A program made the translations under genes and the position numbers. The notes beneath the pieces were generated by a model. It was not told the DNA's origin. It worked only from the letters and a program-made list of their open reading frames with translations, and did no database searches. From the NCBI RefSeq assembly GCF_053078305.1, contig NZ_CP166879.1: a stretch of 64,000 nucleotides of DNA; one strand, 5' to 3'. Shown here one piece after another: positions 18,471 to 64,000 of the stretch (positions are counted from its first letter, which is position 1; the number at the start of each line of letters is the position of its first letter).

Positions 18471-18698
18471 ATGGCAAACCGCAAACAACAGCGCGTCCGC
18501 GCTGAGCGTCTTCACATCCGCACCGAAATCAACCGCAGACTCTGGCGCGCATCACGCGTCGCGCAAATCATGTACATCAACATGCTGCATGAACACGCAC
18601 ACGCGCTGTCAGACCGTTACTGTGCCGCCGTCTTCAGCTACCTGGCGGATGACCTGGCAGAGCTGCAGGACCTTATCAACCAGCAACACCACCACTAA
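18471..18698 (+). CDS. Hypothetical small protein
   Basis: 75 aa; ATG with aagggg RBS; preferred over overlapping low-complexity ORF 18151..18780. Confidence 0.4.
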   Translation: MANRKQQRVRAERLHIRTEINRRLWRASRVAQIMYINMLHEHAHALSDRYCAAVFSYLADDLAELQDLINQQHHH

Positions 18699-18766
18699 AC
18701 AACATCCTGAAGCCATCCCGCACCCGTGCGCGGGAGGCTTCCGCACGTCTGTTACCGGAGGTTCTC

Positions 18767-19189
18767 ATGAAGAACGTTAAGGGACTTTCAGATATTCAGG
18801 ATTTTTTTAACTGGATGTGGGCAGTGGATCCCCGGCTGGCTTCCCGCCTGAACGACTGGCACGACTATTACCGCCGCGCCTGTAAACAGGCCGCCAGACG
18901 CGTCACCACATACGGGGATTTCTCCTTCACCGTTGACGGCAGTTACCGCGTGGACGTGAAAGGCGATGGTGATGGTTTTGGTTTTGGTTTATTTCACATC
19001 AACGGAACCGACAGCACCGCCATCAGCTGGTCGTCGTCAGAGATGACGCTTGTTCTGGAAATGACAAACCACAGCGTGGCCGTGAAAGGTATATACACCG
19101 CAGAAGACTTTATCGGTGAATACCAGCGCCTTCTCGTGCTGTACCGGGCAGCGTTTCAGGCGGCAACTGCCGGGGAGTGCGACGCATGA
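18767..19189 (+). CDS. Hypothetical protein preceding replication gene
   Basis: 140-aa ORF; stop overlaps start of the replication gene. Confidence 0.4.
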   Translation: MKNVKGLSDIQDFFNWMWAVDPRLASRLNDWHDYYRRACKQAARRVTTYGDFSFTVDGSYRVDVKGDGDGFGFGLFHINGTDSTAISWSSSEMTLVLEMTNHSVAVKGIYTAEDFIGEYQRLLVLYRAAFQAATAGECDA

Positions 19190-21705
19190 GCGACCATAAC
19201 GCACAACTGGCGTACCCGTGGAACGCCCCGCTGCCGGTTATCGATCCTGAAACGTTCGGCAGAGCGCAACCAACCGCATTACGCCAGGCCATTCAGAGCT
19301 ACATCAACGAAGACATTCGCACTGACGCCAGACTGGATGAAGAAACCGTCGCCTTCCTGACAACCACAGACGAAGGGAAGCGAATTAATTCGCATCTTCA
19401 CCACGACGAAGAGCGTCGGATCAGACTGGAAAAACTGACGCGACACAAACGCGAAAATCCACCCACGCTGGTATCTGAAGCCATGGCAGAGCTGCGCGCC
19501 CTGCCGCCGTTTCTTGCCGGTCCGCTCATCCGTGACCTGGCCCGCCTGAGCCGCAAACAGGAGAGCGCACGCCGGGAAGGGCTTAAGAATAACAGCGCAT
19601 ATGCGGCGGATAACTTCGTTCGTCACGGCCTGCGTGCCCGCCTGAAACGTATCGCCCGTGTGAATGAACGCTTTGCCACCCCGGCCTTTAAGGCCACCGC
19701 CGCCCGCGAACGGCTGGATGAACTGCTTATGCTGCCGCAGCTGAGCCGTGACGAAATCCAGCGCCTTGCCACCCTGACCGCCACCGCGTTTTCCGCCGCA
19801 CTGGAGCGCGCATGTGATGAGGTCATCGAAAAGACCGGCAGGGGTGACGATGACCTGTTCACCTGGTTACTGACCTACCAGCCACTGGCACGCATGGCGT
19901 TAAAACTGGGTATCACACCACCCTGCTGGCCGTCGCTGGAAATCAGACCCGACCGCCGCACCGCCCCCGACCCGGAACAGGTGCCGGGTGCGGTCATGCG
20001 CCTTTCCTGTGCGACATGGTGGAACAGTCAGTTAAGACACCTCCGGGACATCTGGCGTGAAGAGCTGTTACGCGCCGCAGGTCTGGTGTCACGTAAGACA
20101 TCGGTATATATCAGCCATGAAGCGTTACTGGACTGGCGCGAAAAACGCCAGCGCACCCGCGATTTTCTGAAGGCCTGGGACATCGAGAACGAAGAGGGAG
20201 AACGGTTCAGCCTTGAGGATATCTACTGGGCAGGTCTCTCTAATCCGCGTAACCGCCGTAACGAGATGATGGCCTGCGTCCGGGGAATGGAGCAGGTCGC
20301 CGAAGCACGCGGCGACCTGGCGTTTTTCGTCACCGTCACAGCCCCTTCCCGTTTTCACAGCGTGAACGATGACGGCAGCCTGAACCCGAAATACTGCGGA
20401 GCAACGGTACGTGATGCCAGTGATTATCTGGTTTACCGCTTTTTCGCCGCCGTCCGCAGGGCCATCAACAAGGCCGGGCTGGGCTGGTACGGCGTGCGCA
20501 CAGTGGAGCCCCACCACGACGGTACACCGCACTGGCACATGCTGGTATTCACCAGCCCGGAAAACGAAGCCCGTATCACTGAAATCATGCGCAACGCCGC
20601 CATCAGGGAGGACCGCGCAGAGCTGGGTGATGATATCTCCCCGCGTTTTAAATGCGAAAAAATCGACCCGGCAAAAGGCACACCGGCGAGCTATATCGCG
20701 ACCTATATCGGTAAGAACCTGGACGCCAGCGCCTTCATGGGGAATGACCCGAAAACCGGCAAACCTTACGTCGATAAGGAATCAGGCAAAACCATGGCCG
20801 AAACCGTGGAGAACGCCATCGGCTGGGCGGCCCTTCACCGCATCCGCCAGTTCCAGTTCTTCGGTATCCCTCCCCGCCAGGTATGGCGCGAACTCCGCCG
20901 CCTTGCCGGGCAGATGGCCCGTAACCCGGCTGCCCCGCAGCGTCTGGACCATGACGACATTGACGCCATACTGGCCGCCGCCGACGTGGGATGTTTTGCC
21001 ACCTATATCACCCGCCAGGGTGGTGTGCTCATTCCCCGCAACACGTACCTGGTCCGCACCGCATACGAAACTGCCGAAGAGGCCAACGACTACGGCGAAT
21101 TCCCGCAACGCATTTACGGCGTCCGCGCCCCGTCACTCGGGGAGCGCTACACCATATGCACCCACCCGGACACCTGGAAACTGGTCAGACGTAAGCCGGA
21201 AAACGAAGACCGCACGGACGAGGGTTTTGACGTTGAGTGCGGCTTTGCCGCACCTTGGACTCGTGGCAATAACTGTCCCCCTGACCAGAATCTGACCATA
21301 AACGACCCGCCAGAAAGGCAGCCGGACGGACGCAGGGAGCAGCGACTTACCCTGCCGGAAGGTGATTTGGGTGAATGGTTAAGGTCACTGACCCCCACAG
21401 AGCGAAAACAACTCACCAGGCAGCTGAAAAACCCGCCACCTGACACGGAAACCGTGAAAAACGGCGGCATCAGTGCGCCCGCTGGCGGCGTTCGCGTGAG
21501 TGTCGCACTGACCGCTGAGCCACACATCACCGCACAAATCACCCGTGAGCTTGATGCGCTGGGCGTGCAGCTGCATGAAAGCGCCGTCGTTTCCGTCCGG
21601 CACGGTGCCCGCGTGCGCCTGGCTGACGGGCGCACCGCGTACTGGAATGACAGCACCCGCCGCATTGATATCACCCCCGCACCGAATACGGAGGCGCCAC
21701 AATGA
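19177..21705 (+). CDS. Replication initiation endonuclease (P2 gpA-like, HUH rolling-circle Rep)
   Basis: 842 aa; HUH-type motif EPHHDGTPHWHMLVF; located where P2 A lies relative to int-C-cox. Confidence 0.8.
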   Translation: MRRMSDHNAQLAYPWNAPLPVIDPETFGRAQPTALRQAIQSYINEDIRTDARLDEETVAFLTTTDEGKRINSHLHHDEERRIRLEKLTRHKRENPPTLVSEAMAELRALPPFLAGPLIRDLARLSRKQESARREGLKNNSAYAADNFVRHGLRARLKRIARVNERFATPAFKATAARERLDELLMLPQLSRDEIQRLATLTATAFSAALERACDEVIEKTGRGDDDLFTWLLTYQPLARMALKLGITPPCWPSLEIRPDRRTAPDPEQVPGAVMRLSCATWWNSQLRHLRDIWREELLRAAGLVSRKTSVYISHEALLDWREKRQRTRDFLKAWDIENEEGERFSLEDIYWAGLSNPRNRRNEMMACVRGMEQVAEARGDLAFFVTVTAPSRFHSVNDDGSLNPKYCGATVRDASDYLVYRFFAAVRRAINKAGLGWYGVRTVEPHHDGTPHWHMLVFTSPENEARITEIMRNAAIREDRAELGDDISPRFKCEKIDPAKGTPASYIATYIGKNLDASAFMGNDPKTGKPYVDKESGKTMAETVENAIGWAALHRIRQFQFFGIPPRQVWRELRRLAGQMARNPAAPQRLDHDDIDAILAAADVGCFATYITRQGGVLIPRNTYLVRTAYETAEEANDYGEFPQRIYGVRAPSLGERYTICTHPDTWKLVRRKPENEDRTDEGFDVECGFAAPWTRGNNCPPDQNLTINDPPERQPDGRREQRLTLPEGDLGEWLRSLTPTERKQLTRQLKNPPPDTETVKNGGISAPAGGVRVSVALTAEPHITAQITRELDALGVQLHESAVVSVRHGARVRLADGRTAYWNDSTRRIDITPAPNTEAPQ

Positions 21706-22106
21706 CCCGCTTTTATTGCGCCATGCAGCGCCAGCGTTTTGACGAAATGATGCGCCAGCGCACGCCCTTACTGACCCTGAACAACATTGCCACGGGGCCA
21801 CAACCGGGCGATGAGCTGGAAATCACGGTCGTCAGTCCCGATCGCACCACCACGGCCATCATCACCGACATACTCAACGGACGACCGGACAGCACCAACC
21901 GCAGCTGGCTTGTCGCCGTTCGTCCGCGCCGTCCGCCCGGAGAGCCGGAGCCGCTCACGCCTGCCGGAAAAATCATGCGGCAGTACCACGAAGAGCAGGA
22001 ACACAAACACAACGCAGAACTGACCAGAACACTGGCATCGATTAACCGCAAAGCGGCAATTGCCCGCTATGTGCATTCAGCCGCAGGCAGACAATCACGC
22101 AGGTAA
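21702..22106 (+). CDS. Hypothetical protein, translationally coupled to replication gene
   Basis: 134 aa; ATGA overlap with gpA-like stop. Confidence 0.4.
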   Translation: MTRFYCAMQRQRFDEMMRQRTPLLTLNNIATGPQPGDELEITVVSPDRTTTAIITDILNGRPDSTNRSWLVAVRPRRPPGEPEPLTPAGKIMRQYHEEQEHKHNAELTRTLASINRKAAIARYVHSAAGRQSRR

Positions 22107-22115
22107 ACAAAGACC

Positions 22116-22325
22116 ATGAACATAACCAGAAACAGCCAACTAAAGGAGCGCACCATGAACAGCACCAGGAGGATCAGCGACAGAGAGCTTACGAAAATGA
22201 TTGAGTCGGCACAGCAGCTGCTTTCACGACAAAACCCGGTCGTGGAAGAAACATGGTGGGAGAATTTACTGGCAGCACTGACCGAACTCCGGGAACGCCG
22301 GAACAACGAAGGAGCCGCCAAATGA
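22116..22325 (+). CDS. Hypothetical small protein
   Basis: 69-aa ORF; start may be internal (MNSTRRISDREL). Confidence 0.3.
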   Translation: MNITRNSQLKERTMNSTRRISDRELTKMIESAQQLLSRQNPVVEETWWENLLAALTELRERRNNEGAAK

Positions 22326-22648
22326 AGACCCCAGGAATGACCGGAAAGGAAATCATTTTACGCTACCTGGAAACGCACACACGTTTCAGCGCCCCAGAAC
22401 TGGTAGAAAAACTGGGCGTGAAAAGAACCGTCATTAATCAGGCCGCCGGGAAAATGGTACGGGAAGGCCTGCTGGTTGTGGATGGATACACGGACAAGAT
22501 AACGCATTACCGGAAGCCAACGGAAAAGGAACGACAGGAACTGGCGCAACGGGCTGAACGGCAGCAGGAAAAATCAGTCATCGAAGCCTGCAAGCGCAGC
22601 GAAATCATGAAGCGAATTCTGTTTATCTACGGCGCTGCATTCCGTTAA
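22322..22648 (+). CDS. Putative winged-helix DNA-binding protein
   Basis: 108 aa from MKTPGMTGKEIILRYLETHTRFSAPELVEKLGVKRTVINQAAGKMVREGLLVV; ATGA overlap with preceding ORF. Confidence 0.4.
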   Translation: MKTPGMTGKEIILRYLETHTRFSAPELVEKLGVKRTVINQAAGKMVREGLLVVDGYTDKITHYRKPTEKERQELAQRAERQQEKSVIEACKRSEIMKRILFIYGAAFR

Positions 22649-22656
22649 AGGAGCTG

Positions 22657-22680
22657 GTGAGTCGGGGCAAAAATTCTTTT
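22657..22680. terminator. Bidirectional terminator between convergent genes
   Basis: Hairpin ggggcaaaaattctttttgcccc. Confidence 0.5.
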
Positions 22681-22713
22681 TGCCCCGGCGAAGCAGCAGA
22701 CAAGCGAAGCGCG

Positions 22714-22977
22714 TCAGGAACGCCGCGACAGTAGTTCAAGCGCATACCGGCGATCTTCCGGGCGCATGGCATCAACAAGAAACTTCACCATATTGCGACC
22801 GGAGCGGGCGCCGGGGCTGAGGGTATGGGAAAAGGTCATCGTACAGACGAAGGTGTGCCCGCATTCGACATCACTGCATGCACAGTACAGATCCGCAAGT
22901 TCAGGGGTTTTCCAGTCTGTCTTCCGGATGACAGCAGGTGCGCCACAGTCAGGACACCGGGCTTTAAAAATCCGCAT
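22714..22977 (-). CDS. Ogr/Delta-family zinc-finger late-gene transcription activator
   Basis: From MRIFKARCPDCGAPAV...YCACSDVECGHTF: CPxC...CxxxxxCxxTF pattern of P2 Ogr; GGGAGG RBS 7 nt upstream of ATG. Confidence 0.7.
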   Translation of the reverse strand: MRIFKARCPDCGAPAVIRKTDWKTPELADLYCACSDVECGHTFVCTMTFSHTLSPGARSGRNMVKFLVDAMRPEDRRYALELLSRRS

Positions 22978-23014
22978 CTTACCTCCCGATAACACGTATC
23001 CCGGGGAAGACATT

Positions 23015-24088
23015 TTACCCGACCGGCACCACTTTTTCTTCCGCCACATGCCCGGCTTCCACATCAAAACGAAGATAAAGGTGTTCCGGTATATCGGGAT
23101 CGCTGTTCACGGCGTTCATGATTTTACGCTGAAGCGGTATCACCTCATCCTTGCGGTACGTTTCACGCGTCGTTTCCGGGTTAGGGATGGTGGCCCCGTT
23201 CGTGGGGATGATCCCCGCAAGACCGGCAGGAAAGCGGTGTGCCGTAAACACATCCTGGGCGCTGATCCCCTTGATGTTTGAAAATTCATCCTTGGCGCTC
23301 ACCTCACCAATCGGAATAATTTTCACCCCATCCGGCGAACCTTTGGGGATGTTGATGTACAGATTGCGGAAATTTCCCAGCCCCTTAGACTCCGCCACCT
23401 TCTCGCGGATCTCATCCTCCATCTCCGTGGTGATCCCAGGGTCGTTCGTATACAGCAAAAAGCCCATATGCGCCCCGTTGTTGTAGTAACGGCGACGAAA
23501 AAGGCTGGCCTCGCTGTTCAGCAGCGCCGAGTGAATGCCACCGATATAATCCGGCAGCCCGTAAATTTGCTGACGCGGATCATACATCCGCAGAAAGATA
23601 ATATCTTCCGGCGTATAGACCAGCGCGGGACCTTCCTGAAGCACCACGAACTCACCGGTTTTGCGGCGCCGGAGATACAGCGACGGAAGCGGCTCAAGTG
23701 CCACGACGTCGCCGAATACGTTACGCACCTTGAGCAGGGCGAGATCGCCGAACAACAGGTAGTCAAATACCGCCTGTTCCATCTGGTCCGTTGTGAGGCC
23801 ACCACCGGTATAGCCCCCCGCCACCATGTTACGGCGGGCATACAGCACCCCACCGTGCTGGGCGTTAAGGTTCGGGAGCTGCGCCAGTGCCAGGCGGTTA
23901 ATCGGCAGCTGCCAGTGGTTGTGTTCGTTGTCATACCAGATGTTATGGTAGTCCGTGCCGGTGGTCAGCACCGGTTCCGGCTGACCAAACGTGATTGTGC
24001 TGCCACGTGCGGGCGTGAATGCTTTTTTCGTCACGCGTGACGTTTTGTTTCTGCGTTTCTTGCTCATGCGGCTTTCCCGAAGGCCCAT
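23015..24088 (-). CDS. Portal (capsid vertex) protein, P2 gpQ-like
   Basis: 357 aa; size and position upstream of terminase ATPase on same strand as in P2 Q-P; family assignment by recall. Confidence 0.6.
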   Translation of the reverse strand: MGLRESRMSKKRRNKTSRVTKKAFTPARGSTITFGQPEPVLTTGTDYHNIWYDNEHNHWQLPINRLALAQLPNLNAQHGGVLYARRNMVAGGYTGGGLTTDQMEQAVFDYLLFGDLALLKVRNVFGDVVALEPLPSLYLRRRKTGEFVVLQEGPALVYTPEDIIFLRMYDPRQQIYGLPDYIGGIHSALLNSEASLFRRRYYNNGAHMGFLLYTNDPGITTEMEDEIREKVAESKGLGNFRNLYINIPKGSPDGVKIIPIGEVSAKDEFSNIKGISAQDVFTAHRFPAGLAGIIPTNGATIPNPETTRETYRKDEVIPLQRKIMNAVNSDPDIPEHLYLRFDVEAGHVAEEKVVPVG

Positions 24089-42209: not shown

Positions 42210-42723
42210 TGGTGAGGGTATTTTCATGCAGAACATGGTGATTTCGCCCTCGATGCAGTTCCAGGAAAAGGACCAGTCCGGTCAGACATCGAGCACCGCG
42301 AACGCCGAGCAGGGCATCAAGGCCAAAGAGCTTCGCGTAACCGGGATGATCACCTTTGACAATGAGCGGGCCCTTCAGCGCATTTTCCAGCTGGCCTCTG
42401 CCACCACCGGGGACGGTGCCCTGAAAGTTTACCGTATCGCAAACGCCACCGCTGCCGCCATTAACTTTCGTGAAGGGACATTTTCCGGGCAGATAGACGC
42501 ACAGCAGCAGACCGACCGCCTCGCCTGGCAGGTCAGCTTCACATTACGCGAAAGACGAAGCGTACCGGAAAAACGCCAGGCACGCGCCGCACCCGGCAGC
42601 AGCCGTAAACAGACGCCGCAGACGCCCGGCGCAAAAGGCGGGACCGTGGCCGACGAAACACCGGAGAAAATGACCTGGTTCGAAGAAAAGGTCCTCAAAC
42701 CCGTCAATGATGCGCTGGAGTAA
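42181..42723 (+). CDS. Hypothetical tail-region protein (start uncertain)
   Basis: 180-aa ORF overlapping upstream gene; alternative start MQNMVISPS. Confidence 0.3.
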   Translation: MSQTALLALDGEGIFMQNMVISPSMQFQEKDQSGQTSSTANAEQGIKAKELRVTGMITFDNERALQRIFQLASATTGDGALKVYRIANATAAAINFREGTFSGQIDAQQQTDRLAWQVSFTLRERRSVPEKRQARAAPGSSRKQTPQTPGAKGGTVADETPEKMTWFEEKVLKPVNDALE

Positions 42724-42725
42724 CC

Positions 42726-44399
42726 ATGAACCCCACTAAACGTCTGTTACTGGGTAACGACACCATTCAGCTGGTCAGCTGTTCCGTCATGCTTGAGCTG
42801 AACGCGTGCGGACGCGGATTTATCACGGCCAGAACGGAGCAGAACTACACCGGGCGCCCTGTTCGTCTCGATATCGGATACGGAAACGACCTGGTGCGCT
42901 GGTTTACCGGATACGTTGAACGCAGCCAGCCCGCTGAAAACGGCTCGGTGCGGCTTCTGATTCGTGAAATGGCGGGGATCCTTGATCACCCCTTCCCCTG
43001 TTCATTTCAGCACCCGACAATGCGCACGGTCACACAGTGGCTGAGTGAGACCAGCGGGCTGGAAATCATCCTGCCGGACAACGCGGCTTACACTGACAGA
43101 CCCGTTCCGCATTTCACGCACAGCGGCACGGGCTACGAACTGCTGGCCAGTCTGGGGCGTATTTTCTCCGTACCGGACTACATCTGGCATCCGTTACCGG
43201 ACGGCGGCATTATGGCCGCTGCCGCCGCGCAGGGGATGTTTTCCGGTCGCCCCGTCACCATCCCGCACGAGTTCAGCCAGGCATCAACGGGCGGACACAG
43301 TATGACCCTCCCGATGATTCAGACGCTGCGACCGGGTGTGGAGGTGAACGGTCAGCGCCTGACGATGGTCATGCTGGAAGATGACAACATGACCATCACG
43401 TGGACACCACGCAATAAAGCCACCGGCGCCCCCCTCCAGAAGTCCCCTTTCCGTCGCCAGGCTGAAAAGGCCTTCCCTGAACTGGCATCAGGGCTTCACC
43501 TGCCCAAACTGGCACGTGTTGAGGCGCCGACCGAAGCCGTCAGCGCGGGCAATATTGCCGACCCGTTCAGACCCCGCTACGCGGTGAATCTCCAGCTGCT
43601 TGACGAGAACGGCAACCCGGCAGCGGATACGCCCGTTTATAACGCCGTTCCCCTCCCCGTTCCTATGGCGGGCAGTGAGTCCGGCATGTTCCAGTTCCCG
43701 CCCCCCGGAACCCTGGTGGAAGTGGGATTTGTGGAAGGCCGGGCGGATAAGCCCTTCATCCGCCAGATAATGGCAGAGGGCCACAATCTGCCCGACGTGA
43801 AGCCGGGCGAGCAGTTGCAGCAACAGCGCGACGGCGTATCGCAGCGCGTGACGGTCGCCGGAGACTGGGAGCGCCAGACAGACCAGCGGATACAGGAGAC
43901 ATCACGCGAGCGCGTGGTGAGCGCAGACGAGGAGACGCGGAGCCTGACCAGCCGGGAGACCACCATACAGGCAACCGACACAACCACCGTCCTGGGCGTA
44001 TCCACGCTTCAGGCTGGCGCAGTCACCCATATCACTGAAGAGAACTACAGCATCAGCACGGGCGGGCACATGATGGTGGTTGCCGGTACCTGTGAGCGCG
44101 ACGTGGAAGGCGACACACTGGACACCGTGGGCGGCAGCCTTACCGAAAAGATTAAGGGCGTCCGTCACAGTATTGCGCAGGCGCAGAAGCTGGTTGGCGA
44201 TACGGTGAAGCTGGGAAACGAGGGCATTAATGTACTGACCATGCTGACGGACCTTGCCGATGTGGTGGAAGAGCTGGCCGATATTACGGCATCACATACC
44301 CACCCCAAAACGGGCACGTCTCCGCAGGCCGCACAGTTCAGCCAGGTCGCTCAGGAGTGCCGCCAGCTTAAAAATAAATATTCACCAATAATCGAATAA
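42726..44399 (+). CDS. Putative baseplate hub / central spike protein
   Basis: 557 aa; C-terminal region with histidine motif ITASHTHP resembling iron-binding spike tips (P2 gpV-type); last gene before non-coding right arm. Confidence 0.35.
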   Translation: MNPTKRLLLGNDTIQLVSCSVMLELNACGRGFITARTEQNYTGRPVRLDIGYGNDLVRWFTGYVERSQPAENGSVRLLIREMAGILDHPFPCSFQHPTMRTVTQWLSETSGLEIILPDNAAYTDRPVPHFTHSGTGYELLASLGRIFSVPDYIWHPLPDGGIMAAAAAQGMFSGRPVTIPHEFSQASTGGHSMTLPMIQTLRPGVEVNGQRLTMVMLEDDNMTITWTPRNKATGAPLQKSPFRRQAEKAFPELASGLHLPKLARVEAPTEAVSAGNIADPFRPRYAVNLQLLDENGNPAADTPVYNAVPLPVPMAGSESGMFQFPPPGTLVEVGFVEGRADKPFIRQIMAEGHNLPDVKPGEQLQQQRDGVSQRVTVAGDWERQTDQRIQETSRERVVSADEETRSLTSRETTIQATDTTTVLGVSTLQAGAVTHITEENYSISTGGHMMVVAGTCERDVEGDTLDTVGGSLTEKIKGVRHSIAQAQKLVGDTVKLGNEGINVLTMLTDLADVVEELADITASHTHPKTGTSPQAAQFSQVAQECRQLKNKYSPIIE

Positions 44400-45105: not shown

Positions 45106-45463
45106 ATTACGCGCGGGTGCCTTTCGGCTGACGGCTGGAAGGAATACCTGAAGGCCGGATGTGAAAAGGCCCCGAGTCAACTAACGTTAACCCGAGGCCC
45201 TGACACTTCCTACCTGACAAGTGGAAGGTTAGCGCCTCCCTGTAAAAGGAGTCAAGCGCTATGCCGCAAAAAACGATCATAGTGAGCATTTTATGCATAA
45301 CTATTTTGATGATTGTCTGGATGATACACACGTCACCGTGTGAGTTCAGGCTTAACATCATGTGGTCACAATTTGCGGCGTTCTTGCAGTGTAAACAGTA
45401 AGAAACCGCAGCGGGGGTGAAAGCCCCCGCTATCCGGTTGCCGGGTTCGGTCGATATGGCACC
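45106..45463 (+). repeat. Copy 1 of ~360-bp duplicated module carrying a small hydrophobic-peptide gene (type I toxin-like locus)
   Basis: Near-identical to 45826..46186 (about 90% by eye); starts attacgcgcgggtgcctttcgg, ends at GC hairpin gcgggggtgaaagcccccgc. Confidence 0.7.
45261..45401 (+). CDS. 46-aa hydrophobic peptide, Hok/Gef-like candidate type I toxin (copy 1)
   Basis: MPQKTIIVSILCITILMIVWMIHTSPCEFRLNIMWSQFAAFLQCKQ; AGGAG RBS 8 nt upstream; single TM then Cys-containing tail, as in Hok family; highly structured leader. Confidence 0.45.
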   Translation: MPQKTIIVSILCITILMIVWMIHTSPCEFRLNIMWSQFAAFLQCKQ

Positions 45464-45720: not shown

Positions 45721-45825
45721 CGCCCCGACACAGGACAGAGTAAGCCTGTGCGAAAGAATATCACCAGTGCGATAGCGTTGTCTGCTTCAACGCCAGGCAT
45801 TGCGCACACAAAGGGAAATCAGTAC

Positions 45826-46186
45826 ATTACACGCGGGTGCCTTTCGGCTGATGGCTGGAAGGATTACCTGAAGGCCGGATGTGGAAAGGCCCCGAGTCAA
45901 CTTTAATGTTAACCCGAGGCCCTGACCATCTACCCTAAGCAAGTGGAAGGTTAGCGCCTCCCTGTAAAAGGAGTCAAGCGCTATGCCGCAAAAAACGATC
46001 ATCGTGAGCATTTTATGCTTAACCATGTTGTTGACCGTCTGGATGATACACCGTTCTCCGTGTGAGTTCAGGCTTAACATCATGTGGTCAGAATTTGCGG
46101 CGTTCTTGCAGTGTAAACCGTAAGAAACCGCAGCGGGGGTGAAAGCCCCCGCTATCCGGTTGCCAAAGGTTCGGTCGAAAGTCGCA
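45826..46186 (+). repeat. Copy 2 of ~360-bp duplicated module (type I toxin-like locus)
   Basis: Direct repeat of 45106..45463 with scattered substitutions. Confidence 0.7.
45983..46123 (+). CDS. 46-aa hydrophobic peptide, Hok/Gef-like candidate type I toxin (copy 2)
   Basis: MPQKTIIVSILCLTMLLTVWMIHRSPCEFRLNIMWSEFAAFLQCKP; same RBS and frame as copy 1; differences are mostly conservative. Confidence 0.45.
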   Translation: MPQKTIIVSILCLTMLLTVWMIHRSPCEFRLNIMWSEFAAFLQCKP

Positions 46187-60749: not shown

Positions 60750-60971
<222 letters not shown>

Positions 60972-61224
60972 TTGTTTTACCGCCTGATGGGCGAAGAGAA
61001 AGAACGAGTAAAAGGTCGGTTTAACCGGCCTTTTTATTTTGTGATATGTATGAAGTACTTTGGAAGTATAAGTCCGTAACTTGTCTCGATGTAGATATAC
61101 TGCACAACTTGTTTACAGTATGAGCAAACAATAATTATCATTAAAATTCTTCTTGACCGTTTTACTCCAACTCCCTATAGTAGCGCCCCGTTGCCACCCA
61201 TGAGGTTTGGCAGCAAAACAATTT

Positions 61225-61312
61225 GGTGAGGTGTCCGAGTGGCTGAAGGAGCACGCCTGGAAAGTGTGTATACGGCAACGTATCGGGGGTTCGAATCCCC
61301 CCCTCACCGCCA
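61225..61312 (+). tRNA. serW: tRNA-Ser (anticodon GGA), long-variable-arm class II tRNA
   Basis: GGTGAGGTGTCCGAGTGGCTGAAGGAGCACGCCTGGAAAGTGTG...GGTTCGAATCCCCCCCTCACCGCCA; acceptor stem complementarity, T-loop GGTTCGAATCC, CCA end. Confidence 0.93.
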
Positions 61313-61317
61313 TATTT

Positions 61318-61351
61318 AAAGAAGAGCTCGTACGAAAGTGCGAGCTTTTTT
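61318..61351 (+). terminator. Rho-independent terminator after tRNA-Ser
   Basis: Hairpin aagagctcgtacgaaagtgcgagctt followed by TTTTTTT. Confidence 0.6.
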
Positions 61352-61655
61352 TTCGCATTTTATCTGTCTGTACGGCAGTGAACATGGTGGGCGGGTGGAG
61401 TATGTTACCTGTGAATTTCTAAGCTGCCTGTACGGCAGTGAACACAAATACTACACGTTTAGCCCGTTGTTAATAAAGCAAAACCATCTCATTTTCCTGC
61501 TACCACCCTTTTTTTATCCTTACCTTACCGCAGCACTAATTATCAACAACTTACCATCATCATCAAAAAAAGGGTCTGAACCTCCTCCCCCATAAATAAA
61601 AAGTCCGTAACCTCTTTCGAGATTACGGACTTCACCAACCTACTTAACAATCAGA

Positions 61656-63932
61656 TTAATGCGCTGCTTCCGCCTTGTGCTTTTGTGCACTCTGGAATCC
61701 GTAAGTCAGCTCATTTTTCTCTTTATCCAGCGCGACGGTGACCTGACCGCCGTCCACCAGCGAACCAAACAGCAGTTCGTTGGCAAGCGGTTTTTTCAGG
61801 TTGTCCTGGATGACACGCGCCATCGGACGTGCGCCCATTGCCCGGTCGTAACCTTTCTCGGCCAGCCAGTTACGCGCTTCCTGGCTCACTTCCAGCGAAA
61901 CACCTTTCTGATCCAGCTGAACCTGCAACTCGACGATGAATTTATCCACCACCTGATGGATCACGTCAGTTGACAGATGATCGAACCAGATAATGTTGTC
62001 GAGACGGTTACGGAATTCCGGTGTAAAGATCTTCTTGATCTCTTCCATCGCATCGGTGCTGTTATCCTGGTGGATAAGACCAATGGATTTACGCTCAGTT
62101 TCCCGTACCCCGGCGTTGGTGGTCATCACCAGCACCACGTTACGGAAGTCCGCTTTGCGTCCGTTGTTATCGGTCAGCGTACCGTTGTCCATCACCTGCA
62201 ACAGAATATTGAACACGTCCGGGTGCGCTTTCTCGATTTCGTCCAGCAGCAGCACCGCATGTGGATGCTTGATGACCGCATCAGTCAGCAAACCGCCCTG
62301 ATCAAAACCAACGTATCCCGGAGGCGCACCAATAAGACGGCTGACGGTATGGCGTTCCATATACTCGGACATATCAAAGCGCAGAAGCTCAATGCCCAAA
62401 GCTTTCGAAAGCTGTACCGTCACCTCTGTTTTCCCGACCCCGGTAGGGCCGGCAAACAGGAACGAACCAACCGGTTTATGTTCGTGACCTAAACCTGCAC
62501 GCGCCATCTTAATGGCTTCAGTCAGCGCCTCAATAGCTTTATCCTGACCGAAGACCAGCATTTTCAGGCGATCGCCGAGGTTTTTCAGGGTATCGCGGTC
62601 ACTCTGAGAAACACTCTTCTCTGGAATGCGTGCAATACGGGCCACCACGGACTCAATATCCGCCACATTTACGGTTTTCTTGCGTTTGCTTACCGGCATC
62701 AGGCGTGCGCGAGCGCCCGCTTCGTCGATAACATCAATCGCTTTATCCGGCAGATGACGATCGTTAATGTATTTCACCGCCAGCTCTACCGCCGCACGCA
62801 CCGCTTTTGCGGTATAACGCACGTCGTGGTGCGCTTCATACTTCGGTTTCAGGCCATTGATGATTTGAACAGTTTCTTCGATCGACGGTTCAGTAATATC
62901 AATTTTCTGGAAGCGACGCGCCAGAGCACGGTCTTTCTCGAAAATGTTGCTGAACTCCTGATAGGTTGTCGAACCAATTACGCGAATTTTACCGCTGGAG
63001 AGCAACGGTTTGATTAGGTTAGCCGCATCGACCTGACCACCAGACGCTGCACCCGCACCGATAATGGTGTGGATCTCATCAATAAACAGGATGCTGTTAG
63101 TGTCCTGCTCCAGCTGCTTGAGCAACGCTTTAAAACGTTTTTCAAAGTCGCCGCGATATTTTGTGCCCGCTAACAGAGAACCGATATCGAGAGAGTAAAT
63201 CGTACAGTCAGCCATCACTTCCGGCACATCGCCCTGAACAATTCGCCAGGCAAGACCTTCTGCAATCGCGGTTTTACCGACACCAGATTCCCCCACCAGC
63301 AGCGGGTTGTTTTTACGGCGACGGCAGAGAACCTGAATAGCACGCTCCAGCTCCTTCTCACGACCAATCAGTGGGTCGATTCCGCCCACGCGCGCAAGCT
63401 GATTCAGGTTCGTCGTGAAATTCTCCATACGTTCCTCCCCACCAGCTTGTTCTTCGCTGTTTGGCTGGCTGCCAGGATCAGAAGACTGTGTCGGCTCGTC
63501 TTTACGCGTGCCATGAGAGATAAAGTTCACCACATCGAGACGGCTGACTTCATGTTTACGCAACAGATATGCCGCCTGCGACTCCTGTTCGCTAAAGATA
63601 GCGACCAGAACGTTTGCACCGGTAACCTCATTGCGACCGGAGGACTGGACATGGAAGACCGCACGTTGCAGTACACGCTGAAAACTCAGCGTCGGCTGTG
63701 TGTCGCGCTCCTCTTCACTGGCAGGCAGAACGGGTGTGGTTTGTTCAATAAAGGCTTCCAGTTCCTGACGGAGCGCAACCAAATCCACAGAACACGCTTC
63801 CAGCGCCTCCCGGGCAGATGGGTTACTGAGCAGCGCCAGTAACAAGTGCTCGACGGTCATAAACTCATGACGGTGCTCGCGCGCTCTGGCGAAAGCCATA
63901 TTTAAACTGAGTTCCAGTTCTTGATTGAGCAT
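61656..63932 (-). CDS. clpA: ATP-dependent Clp protease ATP-binding subunit ClpA
   Basis: 758 aa from [35 protein letters not shown]; two AAA+ modules (GESGVGKTA and GPTGVGKTE Walker A); track ORF starts 5 codons upstream. Confidence 0.95.
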
Positions 63933-64000
63933 AGGCACCTCCCCCAATTTTTATGCCTGCATTCAGGCTTTTTCTAGCGTACACAGCAATGGATGCTCAT

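Follow-up and report, generated by a model that had tools for sequence, protein, structure and literature searches.

What do the small genes behind the replication gene of a P2-family phage serve, the protection of the lysogen against other phages or the lytic growth of the phage itself? This question is raised by a locus in a 64,000-nucleotide (nt) stretch of contig NZ_CP166879.1 (RefSeq assembly GCF_053078305.1), which as a whole is called the window here and which carries a P88-related P2-family (Peduoviridae) prophage. The gene of a gpA-type rolling-circle initiator (A) is followed on the same strand by three small genes (g1, g2 and g3), for which an earlier note, made from the letters alone, had suggested a compact regulatory or exclusion module equivalent to tin and old of phage P2. 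Our analysis favors another answer, to which we assign a probability of about 0.55: judged from sequence comparison, the three genes would form the lytic-cycle tail of the replication operon, and g3, a homolog of the Ren protein of phage lambda, would act as a Ren-type anti-abortive-infection or replication factor.

The 1.15-kb stretch around these genes is 100% identical to the chromosome of Escherichia coli 04-00955 (NZ_CP035498.1), and the RefSeq features of this identical genome, made by the Prokaryotic Genome Annotation Pipeline (PGAP), were used as the annotation reference. All three open reading frames (ORFs) pointed out by the earlier note (21702-22106, 22116-22325 and 22322-22648) are present and annotated by PGAP. 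The sizes given for the outer two (134 and 108 amino acids, aa) were correct, whereas the middle gene, listed with 69 aa, probably encodes 56 aa from position 22155. The genes are as follows:

19186-21705, + strand: replication endonuclease gene A, gpA-type rolling-circle initiator (PGAP start)
21702-22106, + strand: g1, 134 aa (ORF, PGAP, phrog_14984)
22155-22325, + strand: g2, 56 aa (PGAP start, phrog_14672; the long alternative start at 22116 gives 69 aa)
22322-22648, + strand: g3, 108 aa, Ren-family winged-helix protein (phrog_142, BLASTP, tblastn, AlphaFold)

The Ren-like protein g3

Residues 4-107 of g3 match the PHROG family phrog_142, 'Ren-like exclusion protein' (4.5e-29), and BLASTP against lambda Ren (NP_040633) gives 42% identity (E 3e-27) over lambda residues 1-93 of 96. 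By tblastn, g3 also recovers ren of lambda, HK140, phage 21, 933W and many Shiga toxin (Stx) phages with 95% query coverage and about 40% identity (40.8% for lambda), and in a profile search the lambda-type relatives of g3 carry the NCBI name 'protein ren'. Met1 of lambda Ren aligns with Met6 of g3, and the alignment reaches the C-terminal MKR(I/V)L..YG. The conserved motifs of g3 and Ren are INQAA.KM.R.GLLV and C.xSxxMKRxL; across 22 aligned sequences from both Ren subfamilies (see below), INQAA in the recognition helix, GLLV, YR and the C-terminal C..S..M...L are invariant or nearly so, and within the C-terminal motif of g3, C90 never varies while S93, M96 and L100 hardly vary. These comparisons show that g3 is a full-length homolog of lambda Ren.

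The Ren-family loci of the IMG/VR database fall into two classes by their identity to g3, seven with 90-98% and the other 73 with at most 45%, which sets the g3 type sharply apart as a subfamily. In each of the seven g3-type loci, as far as it includes upstream DNA, the Ren-like gene is preceded by A, g1 and g2, while 72 of the 73 lambda-type loci follow lambda P and the remaining one follows an O-like gene with an IstB/DnaC-type loader. Ren is said to accompany all initiator-helicase-loader modules; g3 lacks this association with an O/P-type initiator and helicase loader, its upstream genes being gpA, g1 and g2. In a lambdoid IMG/VR contig (L107, 3263-5300), the gene upstream of a Ren homolog, to which it is coupled through an ATGA overlap, encodes an IstB/DnaC-type helicase loader in place of lambda P; thus, Ren is not tied to P even in lambdoid phages. 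Besides these proteins, a widespread set of 57-aa proteins (P0156, on 261 contigs; phrog_7054) matches only the N-terminal winged helix of g3, with 56-60% identity, and these look like Ren-type proteins without the C-terminal helices.

The winged-helix-like segment that the earlier note had seen in the last gene was confirmed with other tools. The AlphaFold model of g3 (predicted local distance difference test, pLDDT, 82) contains a winged helix from residue 8 and then two C-terminal helices, and Pfam reports MarR_2 (E 1.9e-5, residues 12-53, or about 42 residues) with 25.2 bits against a gathering cut-off of 27, as well as GntR (2.3e-4). Foldseek against the PDB returned only generic ArsR/MarR/AspA-type winged helices with template modeling (TM) scores of about 0.35-0.5, and no Ren relative with a solved structure came up when PDB sequences were searched with a profile. 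PGAP names the protein 'MarR family transcriptional regulator'. It may be asked, then, if g3 is an ordinary MarR-type regulator of phage genes, acting on the convergent ogr and late genes or on the early operon, with g2 as a small modulator. The winged-helix fold, the ArsR/MarR repressors at the top of the Foldseek matches, the PGAP name and the position of g3 next to ogr agree with such a role, but we consider it quite unlikely. MarR proteins have 140-150 aa and dimerization helices on both sides of the winged helix, whereas g3 has 108 aa with helices on the C-terminal side only; the best TM-scores stay at about 0.5; and the full-length match is to Ren, whose C-terminal motif is absent from MarR. 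Because the Pfam score is below threshold, the fold matches are generic and the closest full-length relatives are Ren proteins, the RefSeq MarR label under-describes g3, and it is a recurrent misannotation. DNA binding by Ren-type proteins is possible, so that a regulatory role overlaps with the other readings, and the 'regulatory module' of the earlier note is a possible description as far as g3 is concerned.

Gene A, its companion g1 and the g2-g3 pair

Substitution rates were calculated against four relatives whose A is 79% identical. The ratio of nonsynonymous to synonymous rates (dN/dS) is 0.19 for A, 0.29-0.33 for g1, 0.22-0.36 for g2 (56-aa form) and 0.14-0.23 for g3. Since the values of all three small ORFs lie between 0.14 and 0.36, g1, g2 and g3 are real genes under purifying selection.

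Gene A matches Pfam Phage_GPA (2e-106) and phrog_91 (7.7e-237), is annotated as 'replication endonuclease' by PGAP, and is also open from an upstream GTG at 19177. Its product is 53% identical to gpA of P88, and P88/Xuanwuvirus are the nearest relatives among deposited phages. The ATG of g1 overlaps the stop codon of A by 4 nt (ATGA), with GGAGG 9 nt upstream, and g1 starts 4 nt ahead of the stop codon of the 'replication endonuclease' gene in every annotated E. coli locus inspected. The g1 protein matches phrog_14984 (4.6e-66), and its narrow family comprises 35 protein clusters, of which every source-named one is labeled E. coli. Behind the strongly conserved motifs MTRF.C..Q..F, PQPGDELEIT, PDR.T and DIL, the sequence continues with a proline-rich linker and a basic helix. 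AlphaFold models the protein poorly (pLDDT 63, predicted TM-score 0.29), as a small N-terminal domain and a long C-terminal helix (87-133). Searches of Pfam, NCBIfam, PADLOC and the PDB found no relatives of g1 (the Pfam and NCBIfam matches being noise).

The earlier note had proposed to compare the occupancy of the interval across related prophages, and had named conserved replication accessory genes as what would speak against its exclusion idea. By tblastn of the window proteins against 96 fetched loci, g1 is present in all nine loci with an A at least 74% identical, which is the very finding that the note had named; the variable content expected of the hotspot is seen in g2 and g3 and not in g1. 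None of the 96 loci has g1 with a P88-type or more distant A, and in P88-type phages a ParM-like gene and other genes follow A. Moreover, the identity of g1 follows that of A: where A is 98% identical, g1 is 96-98% identical, and where A is 79% identical, g1 is about 60% identical. As all loci examined with this A lineage contain g1, and as the two proteins lose identity in parallel, g1 behaves as a fixed, lineage-specific companion of this gpA that diverges together with A. No tblastn match to g1 or g2 was obtained among 50,697 deposited phage genomes, and the A/g1 lineage is one without an isolated phage representative. An origin of g1 or g2 as a remnant of lambda P or of the longer C-terminus of P88 gpA was also considered and was dropped, as the similarity is not significant.

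For g2, the start at 22155 (56 aa) is most likely the one used, rather than 22116 (69 aa). An AAGGAG Shine-Dalgarno sequence lies 7 nt upstream of 22155, PGAP places the start there, and phrog_14672, a 56-position profile, matches residues 14-69 of the long form (3.3e-32). In addition, distant homologs start just ahead of the RISDK motif, and the 13 extra codons of the long form have a dN/dS of about 0.9 (small sample). A direct repeat (ACCATGAACA.. ACCAG) at 22113-22129 and 22152-22168 doubles the context of the start codon, which gives rise to the two in-frame alternative ATG starts, 39 nt apart.

The g2 product is a small helical protein with the motif RISD..L..MI..A..LL.R..PV.EE.WW......L.ELRERR, for which Pfam and NCBIfam gave only noise and PADLOC no match. 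An exhaustive HMMER search yielded a family of 17 representatives. Homologs stand alone after the replication genes of lambdoid prophages; others lie in an early region of the Mu type, immediately behind gpA in a 186-like phage, or are fused to the C-terminus of an Ead/Ea22 protein. No Ren-like neighbor was found in the lambdoid, Mu-like and 186-like loci inspected, where g2 homologs have other neighbors, so an obligate pairing of g2 with a Ren-like gene is ruled out. These contexts also bear on the idea that g2 and g3 are a small toxin-antitoxin or addiction pair, consisting of a small protein and a DNA-binding partner with overlapping genes. Such a pair would fit the 4-nt overlap, the presence of g3 at 39 of 46 g2 places and the winged helix of the partner. 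Yet g2 homologs occur alone or with other, non-Ren-like neighbors; lambda Ren is coupled to P or to a DnaC-type loader, and not to a g2-like gene; and no toxin-family match was found in Pfam, PADLOC or NCBIfam. We regard a toxin-antitoxin pair as extremely improbable.

The history of g2 and g3 differs from that of A and g1. Where A is 79% identical, g2 and g3 are 84-93% identical; the synonymous rate dS is about 0.75 for A and about 1.0 for g1 (range for the two, 0.7-1.0), compared with 0.15-0.48 for g2 and g3; and between g1 and g2 the GC content falls from about 0.62 to about 0.52. Identity, dS and GC content all step at this boundary, which places a recombination joint between g1 and g2, with A and g1 forming one unit and g2 and g3 another. 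The distribution of the genes was counted in 5426 complete E. coli genomes:

g1: 79 places in 67 genomes
g2: 46 places in 37 genomes
g3: 39 places in 32 genomes

The g2-g3 cassette is hence found at about half of the 79 g1 places, with g3 at 39 and g2 at 46. In loci L002, L003, L011 and L097-L099, g2 and g3 are replaced, and g1 is kept with its A lineage in every locus examined. Only g2 and g3 follow g1 in the window. In some relatives, g1 is followed by g2, g3, a short gene resembling those of single-stranded DNA-binding (SSB) proteins and then a minus-strand DUF4760 gene or a TumE/HVO_A0114 toxin-antitoxin pair; elsewhere it is followed by a g2 variant with unrelated small ORFs, by other small ORFs or a single 82-aa ORF, or by a 100-aa ORF, IS600, a helix-turn-helix (HTH) protein and a PIN-domain protein. 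Taken together, g2 and g3 form a facultative, separately exchanged two-gene cassette of separate origin. The SSB-like genes, which are absent from the window, lie right after the Ren-like gene in L004 (6896-7213), L005 (6753-7013) and L006 (6092-6349) and encode 85-105 aa; the 105-aa copy of L004 matches phrog_44, and all are far shorter than the 271-position profile.

Hairpin, probable cos region and the P2 hotspot

Downstream of g3, the following features complete the interval:

22653-22697: strong hairpin, probable bidirectional terminator between the convergent g3 and ogr (inverted repeat, RNA fold)
22646-22719: 74-nt P88-like conserved element, probable cos region (from the comparison with P88-like phages and P2)
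22714-22977, - strand: Ogr/Delta-type zinc-finger late activator (Pfam Ogr_Delta 2.5e-15, PGAP), convergent with g3, on the far side of the interval
23015-24067, - strand: portal gene Q (PGAP 'phage portal protein'), which bounds the gpA-gpQ interval

The order at the locus is thus A, g1, g2, g3, hairpin with probable cos, ogr and Q. The earlier note had described the three genes as overlapping and translationally coupled. This holds for g2/g3 and, in addition, for A/g1, the only two junctions with 4-nt ATGA overlaps, each with a good Shine-Dalgarno sequence (at g3, whose ATG overlaps the g2 stop codon, it is AAGGAG, 7 nt upstream); g1 and g2, however, are separated by 48 nt (9 nt with the long form of g2). 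The junctions of lambda P with ren and of the DnaC-type loader with ren in L107 are ATGA overlaps as well. A consensus scan of the + strand, covering 18500 to 23300, detected no promoter-like site.

The stop codon of g3 is directly followed by an inverted repeat with 21-nt arms, which folds at -35.5 kcal/mol (z -4.7 versus shuffled sequences). The 74-nt element, composed of the hairpin and the next ~30 nt, is 92-93% identical to 16 records of P88-like phages, whose flanks differ, and in most annotated P88-like records it is located at the 3' end of the portal gene. In the window, the hairpin is immediately followed by GGCGAAGCAGCAGACAAGC; in P2, a hairpin is followed at once by the 19-nt cosR sequence GGCGAGGCGGGGAAAGCAC. 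Because of this resemblance, the element at 22646-22719 is probably the cos region together with a bidirectional terminator. If so, about 40 nt would separate the end of g3 from that of the packaged genome, and the interval would be the cos-proximal gpA-gpQ locus, defined as the P2 hotspot by Rousset et al. (2022). The hotspot position given by the earlier note is therefore borne out, since g1-g3 have gpA on one side and the probable cos, followed by gpQ, on the other.

Does this position make the genes an anti-phage cargo module, expressed from the prophage and protecting the host? The location itself, the facultative and replaceable nature of g2-g3 and the PHROGs label 'Ren-like exclusion protein' in the moron category would be in line with such a module. 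PADLOC-DB 2.0 gave no match for g1 and g2, and for g3 weak matches (E 1e-4 to 1e-2), which might be taken in its favor but are limited to the generic winged-helix region. Several observations speak against it. The three genes share the strand of A, have coupled starts and lack a promoter-like site, while tin/old and the minus-strand cargo of relatives have the opposite orientation; g1 is invariant with A; and no enzymatic or effector domain was found by Pfam and NCBIfam in the 298 aa of g1-g3. Moreover, the label conflicts with the lambda phenotype: since ren mutants are the ones that get excluded, Ren counters exclusion, and 'exclusion protein' is misleading. As orientation, coupling, the lack of a promoter-like site, of effector domains and of matches to defense models all point the same way, we consider a host-protecting module very unlikely, and with it the tin/old equivalence suggested earlier, against which the Ren homology also speaks. 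The observation of the earlier note that none of the three is recognizable as tin or old was correct: BLASTP revealed no similarity of g1-g3 to P2 Tin, Old or Orf91 (best E for Tin/Old 0.12, short segments).

Cargo of relatives past the early-operon tail includes the TumE/HVO_A0114 pair of L006 (6469-7217), IS600 with the HTH and PIN-domain genes of L099 (5272-8466) and the minus-strand DUF4760 gene of L004 (7261-7758). In the prophage of the window, this cargo slot downstream of the early-operon tail is empty.

In the annotated record NZ_CP035498.1, the prophage sits between dmsA and serS. It begins with integrase, repressor, cox and a row of small early genes, followed by A, g1, g2 and g3, and continues on the opposite strand with ogr/delta, portal Q and terminase P, after which come the late genes. 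The ogr/delta gene lies between cos and the portal gene, and the order A, ogr, Q is repeated in many distant IMG/VR loci. The tail-fiber gene is annotated as two pseudogene fragments (38816-39799 and 40316-40876), and the prophage may be defective for adsorption because this gene is split. Three overlapping ORFs after the tail-fiber assembly gene (241, 180 and 557 aa; 41484-44399) were considered as cargo and rejected; the middle one is an HP1_ORF34 baseplate protein, PADLOC gave no match for the three, and they are probably structural. A DNA methyltransferase gene (32519-33271) lies within the lysis cassette, with the holin on one side and the endolysin on the other, and two Hok/Gef family toxin genes (45260-45400 and 45731-45871) are located at the right prophage border beside serS. 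The end of the window contains a CRISPR array, a tRNA-Ser gene and type I-F cas genes (cas6f, csy3 and csy2) at 60797-61484 and 62023-64000, which have no relation to the prophage.

Function of the operon tail and its known counterparts

In lambda, the ends of O, P and ren overlap, and the three genes are translated together. On Rex+ lysogens, heteroimmune ren mutants of lambda show poor growth, which mutations in O and P can suppress, and contacts have been reported between RexB and Ren (yeast two-hybrid) and between RexA/RexB and Ren (bacterial two-hybrid); this phenotype and these two-hybrid data concern lambda Ren only. Ren is dispensable for P-lethality and replicative killing, and is said to have 'some as yet unidentified role' in replication and to be 'likely involved in DNA replication'.

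Against this background, we infer co-transcription, expression timing and functions as follows. The genes g1-g3 would be the promoter-distal tail of the early lytic or replication operon, transcribed with A and ending at the hairpin before cos. The product of g1 would be an accessory factor for A-dependent replication, and that of g3 would act in lytic replication and prevent a resident Rex-type system from aborting the phage; to this end it might contact the sensor or hide a replication intermediate.

Some points weigh against this proposal. The co-transcription of A through g3 rests on a simple promoter scan, the model of g1 is of low confidence, and no functional annotation of g1 and g2 was found in Pfam, PHROGs, PADLOC or NCBIfam. 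The identity between g3 and lambda Ren is only about 42%, and the genetically implicated lambda partners O and P are absent here, so a Rex-related function may not transfer. In addition, the fold matches of g3 are to generic winged-helix proteins.

A related explanation is that all three proteins, including the Ren homolog, simply aid replication (by initiation control, mode switching or DNA tethering), and that the anti-Rex phenotype is a side effect restricted to lambda. Its appeal lies in the terminal place in the replication operon, which is also seen in lambdoid phages, in the literature that ties ren to DNA replication and to all initiator-helicase-loader modules, in the strict linkage of g1 to A, and in the small SSB-like gene right behind g3 in relatives. 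However, about half of the A/g1 prophages lack g2 and g3 and carry unrelated small ORFs instead, so that g2 and g3 cannot be essential for replication. Furthermore, the Ren family serves both theta (O/P) and rolling-circle (gpA) replication, which argues against a replication role specific to one mechanism. We hold a pure replication set, the main rival, to be possible but rather unlikely, and favor the lytic-cycle tail with a Ren-type g3.

In a wider view, which we hold to be possible but rather unlikely, Ren-type proteins would be portable counter-defense factors that neutralize RexAB-like abortive-infection sensors whatever the replication mode, and g2-g3 would have been captured by a rolling-circle P2-family phage. 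If this is true, the function of Ren is separable from O/P genetics, and the 45-year-old question of how Ren overcomes Rex becomes directly testable. Known since 1980, Ren has been linked in its role to O/P modules of the lambda type. A clearly homologous subfamily, found at the equivalent place of the operon behind an unrelated rolling-circle initiator, suggests an activity independent of O and P, and offers a second, simpler system of study. While Ren itself is known, a distinct subfamily on a rolling-circle replicon, which contradicts the stated O/P link, appears to be new. The same seems to apply to the partition of the hotspot, in which one gene is fixed, an early cassette is facultative and the cargo has its own slot; a literature search of incomplete coverage found no paper describing the rolling-circle Ren subfamily or this partition. 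The reading of the hotspot would be refined accordingly, with co-oriented genes coupled to A as early-operon accessories and the cargo of lysogenic conversion lying beyond. With about 1% of complete E. coli genomes carrying it, the lineage is rare, and the practical impact is limited.

Among known systems, the Ead/Ea22-like proteins of lambdoid phages include a 224-aa protein in which residues 119-174 align with the g2 domain of about 50 aa and residues 2-120 belong to Pfam Ead_Ea22, whereas g2 is a stand-alone domain. P2 tin and old occupy the same interval between A and cos/Q as g1-g3. However, they lie beyond Orf91 and are transcribed in the other direction from a promoter of their own near cos, and their products are large (Tin, 253 aa; Old, 586 aa, annotated as AAA family ATPase and exonuclease), while g1-g3 are co-oriented with A. 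P2 Orf91 (DUF3850) follows A on the same strand with a 4-nt overlap in the early operon, and g1-g3 match it in position, although Orf91 has no sequence similarity to any of them and matches PHROG 986, annotated as an RNA-binding protein. Because g1-g3 are co-oriented with A, with coupled starts and no promoter-like site, their arrangement is of the Orf91 type and not of the tin/old type. The closest counterpart of g3 is lambda Ren, which is likewise encoded by the last gene of a replication operon, with a start that overlaps the upstream stop codon as ATGA behind an AAGGAG Shine-Dalgarno sequence, and which shares with g3 the winged helix and the C-terminal C.xSxxMKRxL..YG. The two differ in five extra N-terminal residues and a 6-residue linker insertion in g3, and in the position of g3 behind a rolling-circle gpA gene, g1 and g2 rather than behind O/P or O and a DnaC-type loader.

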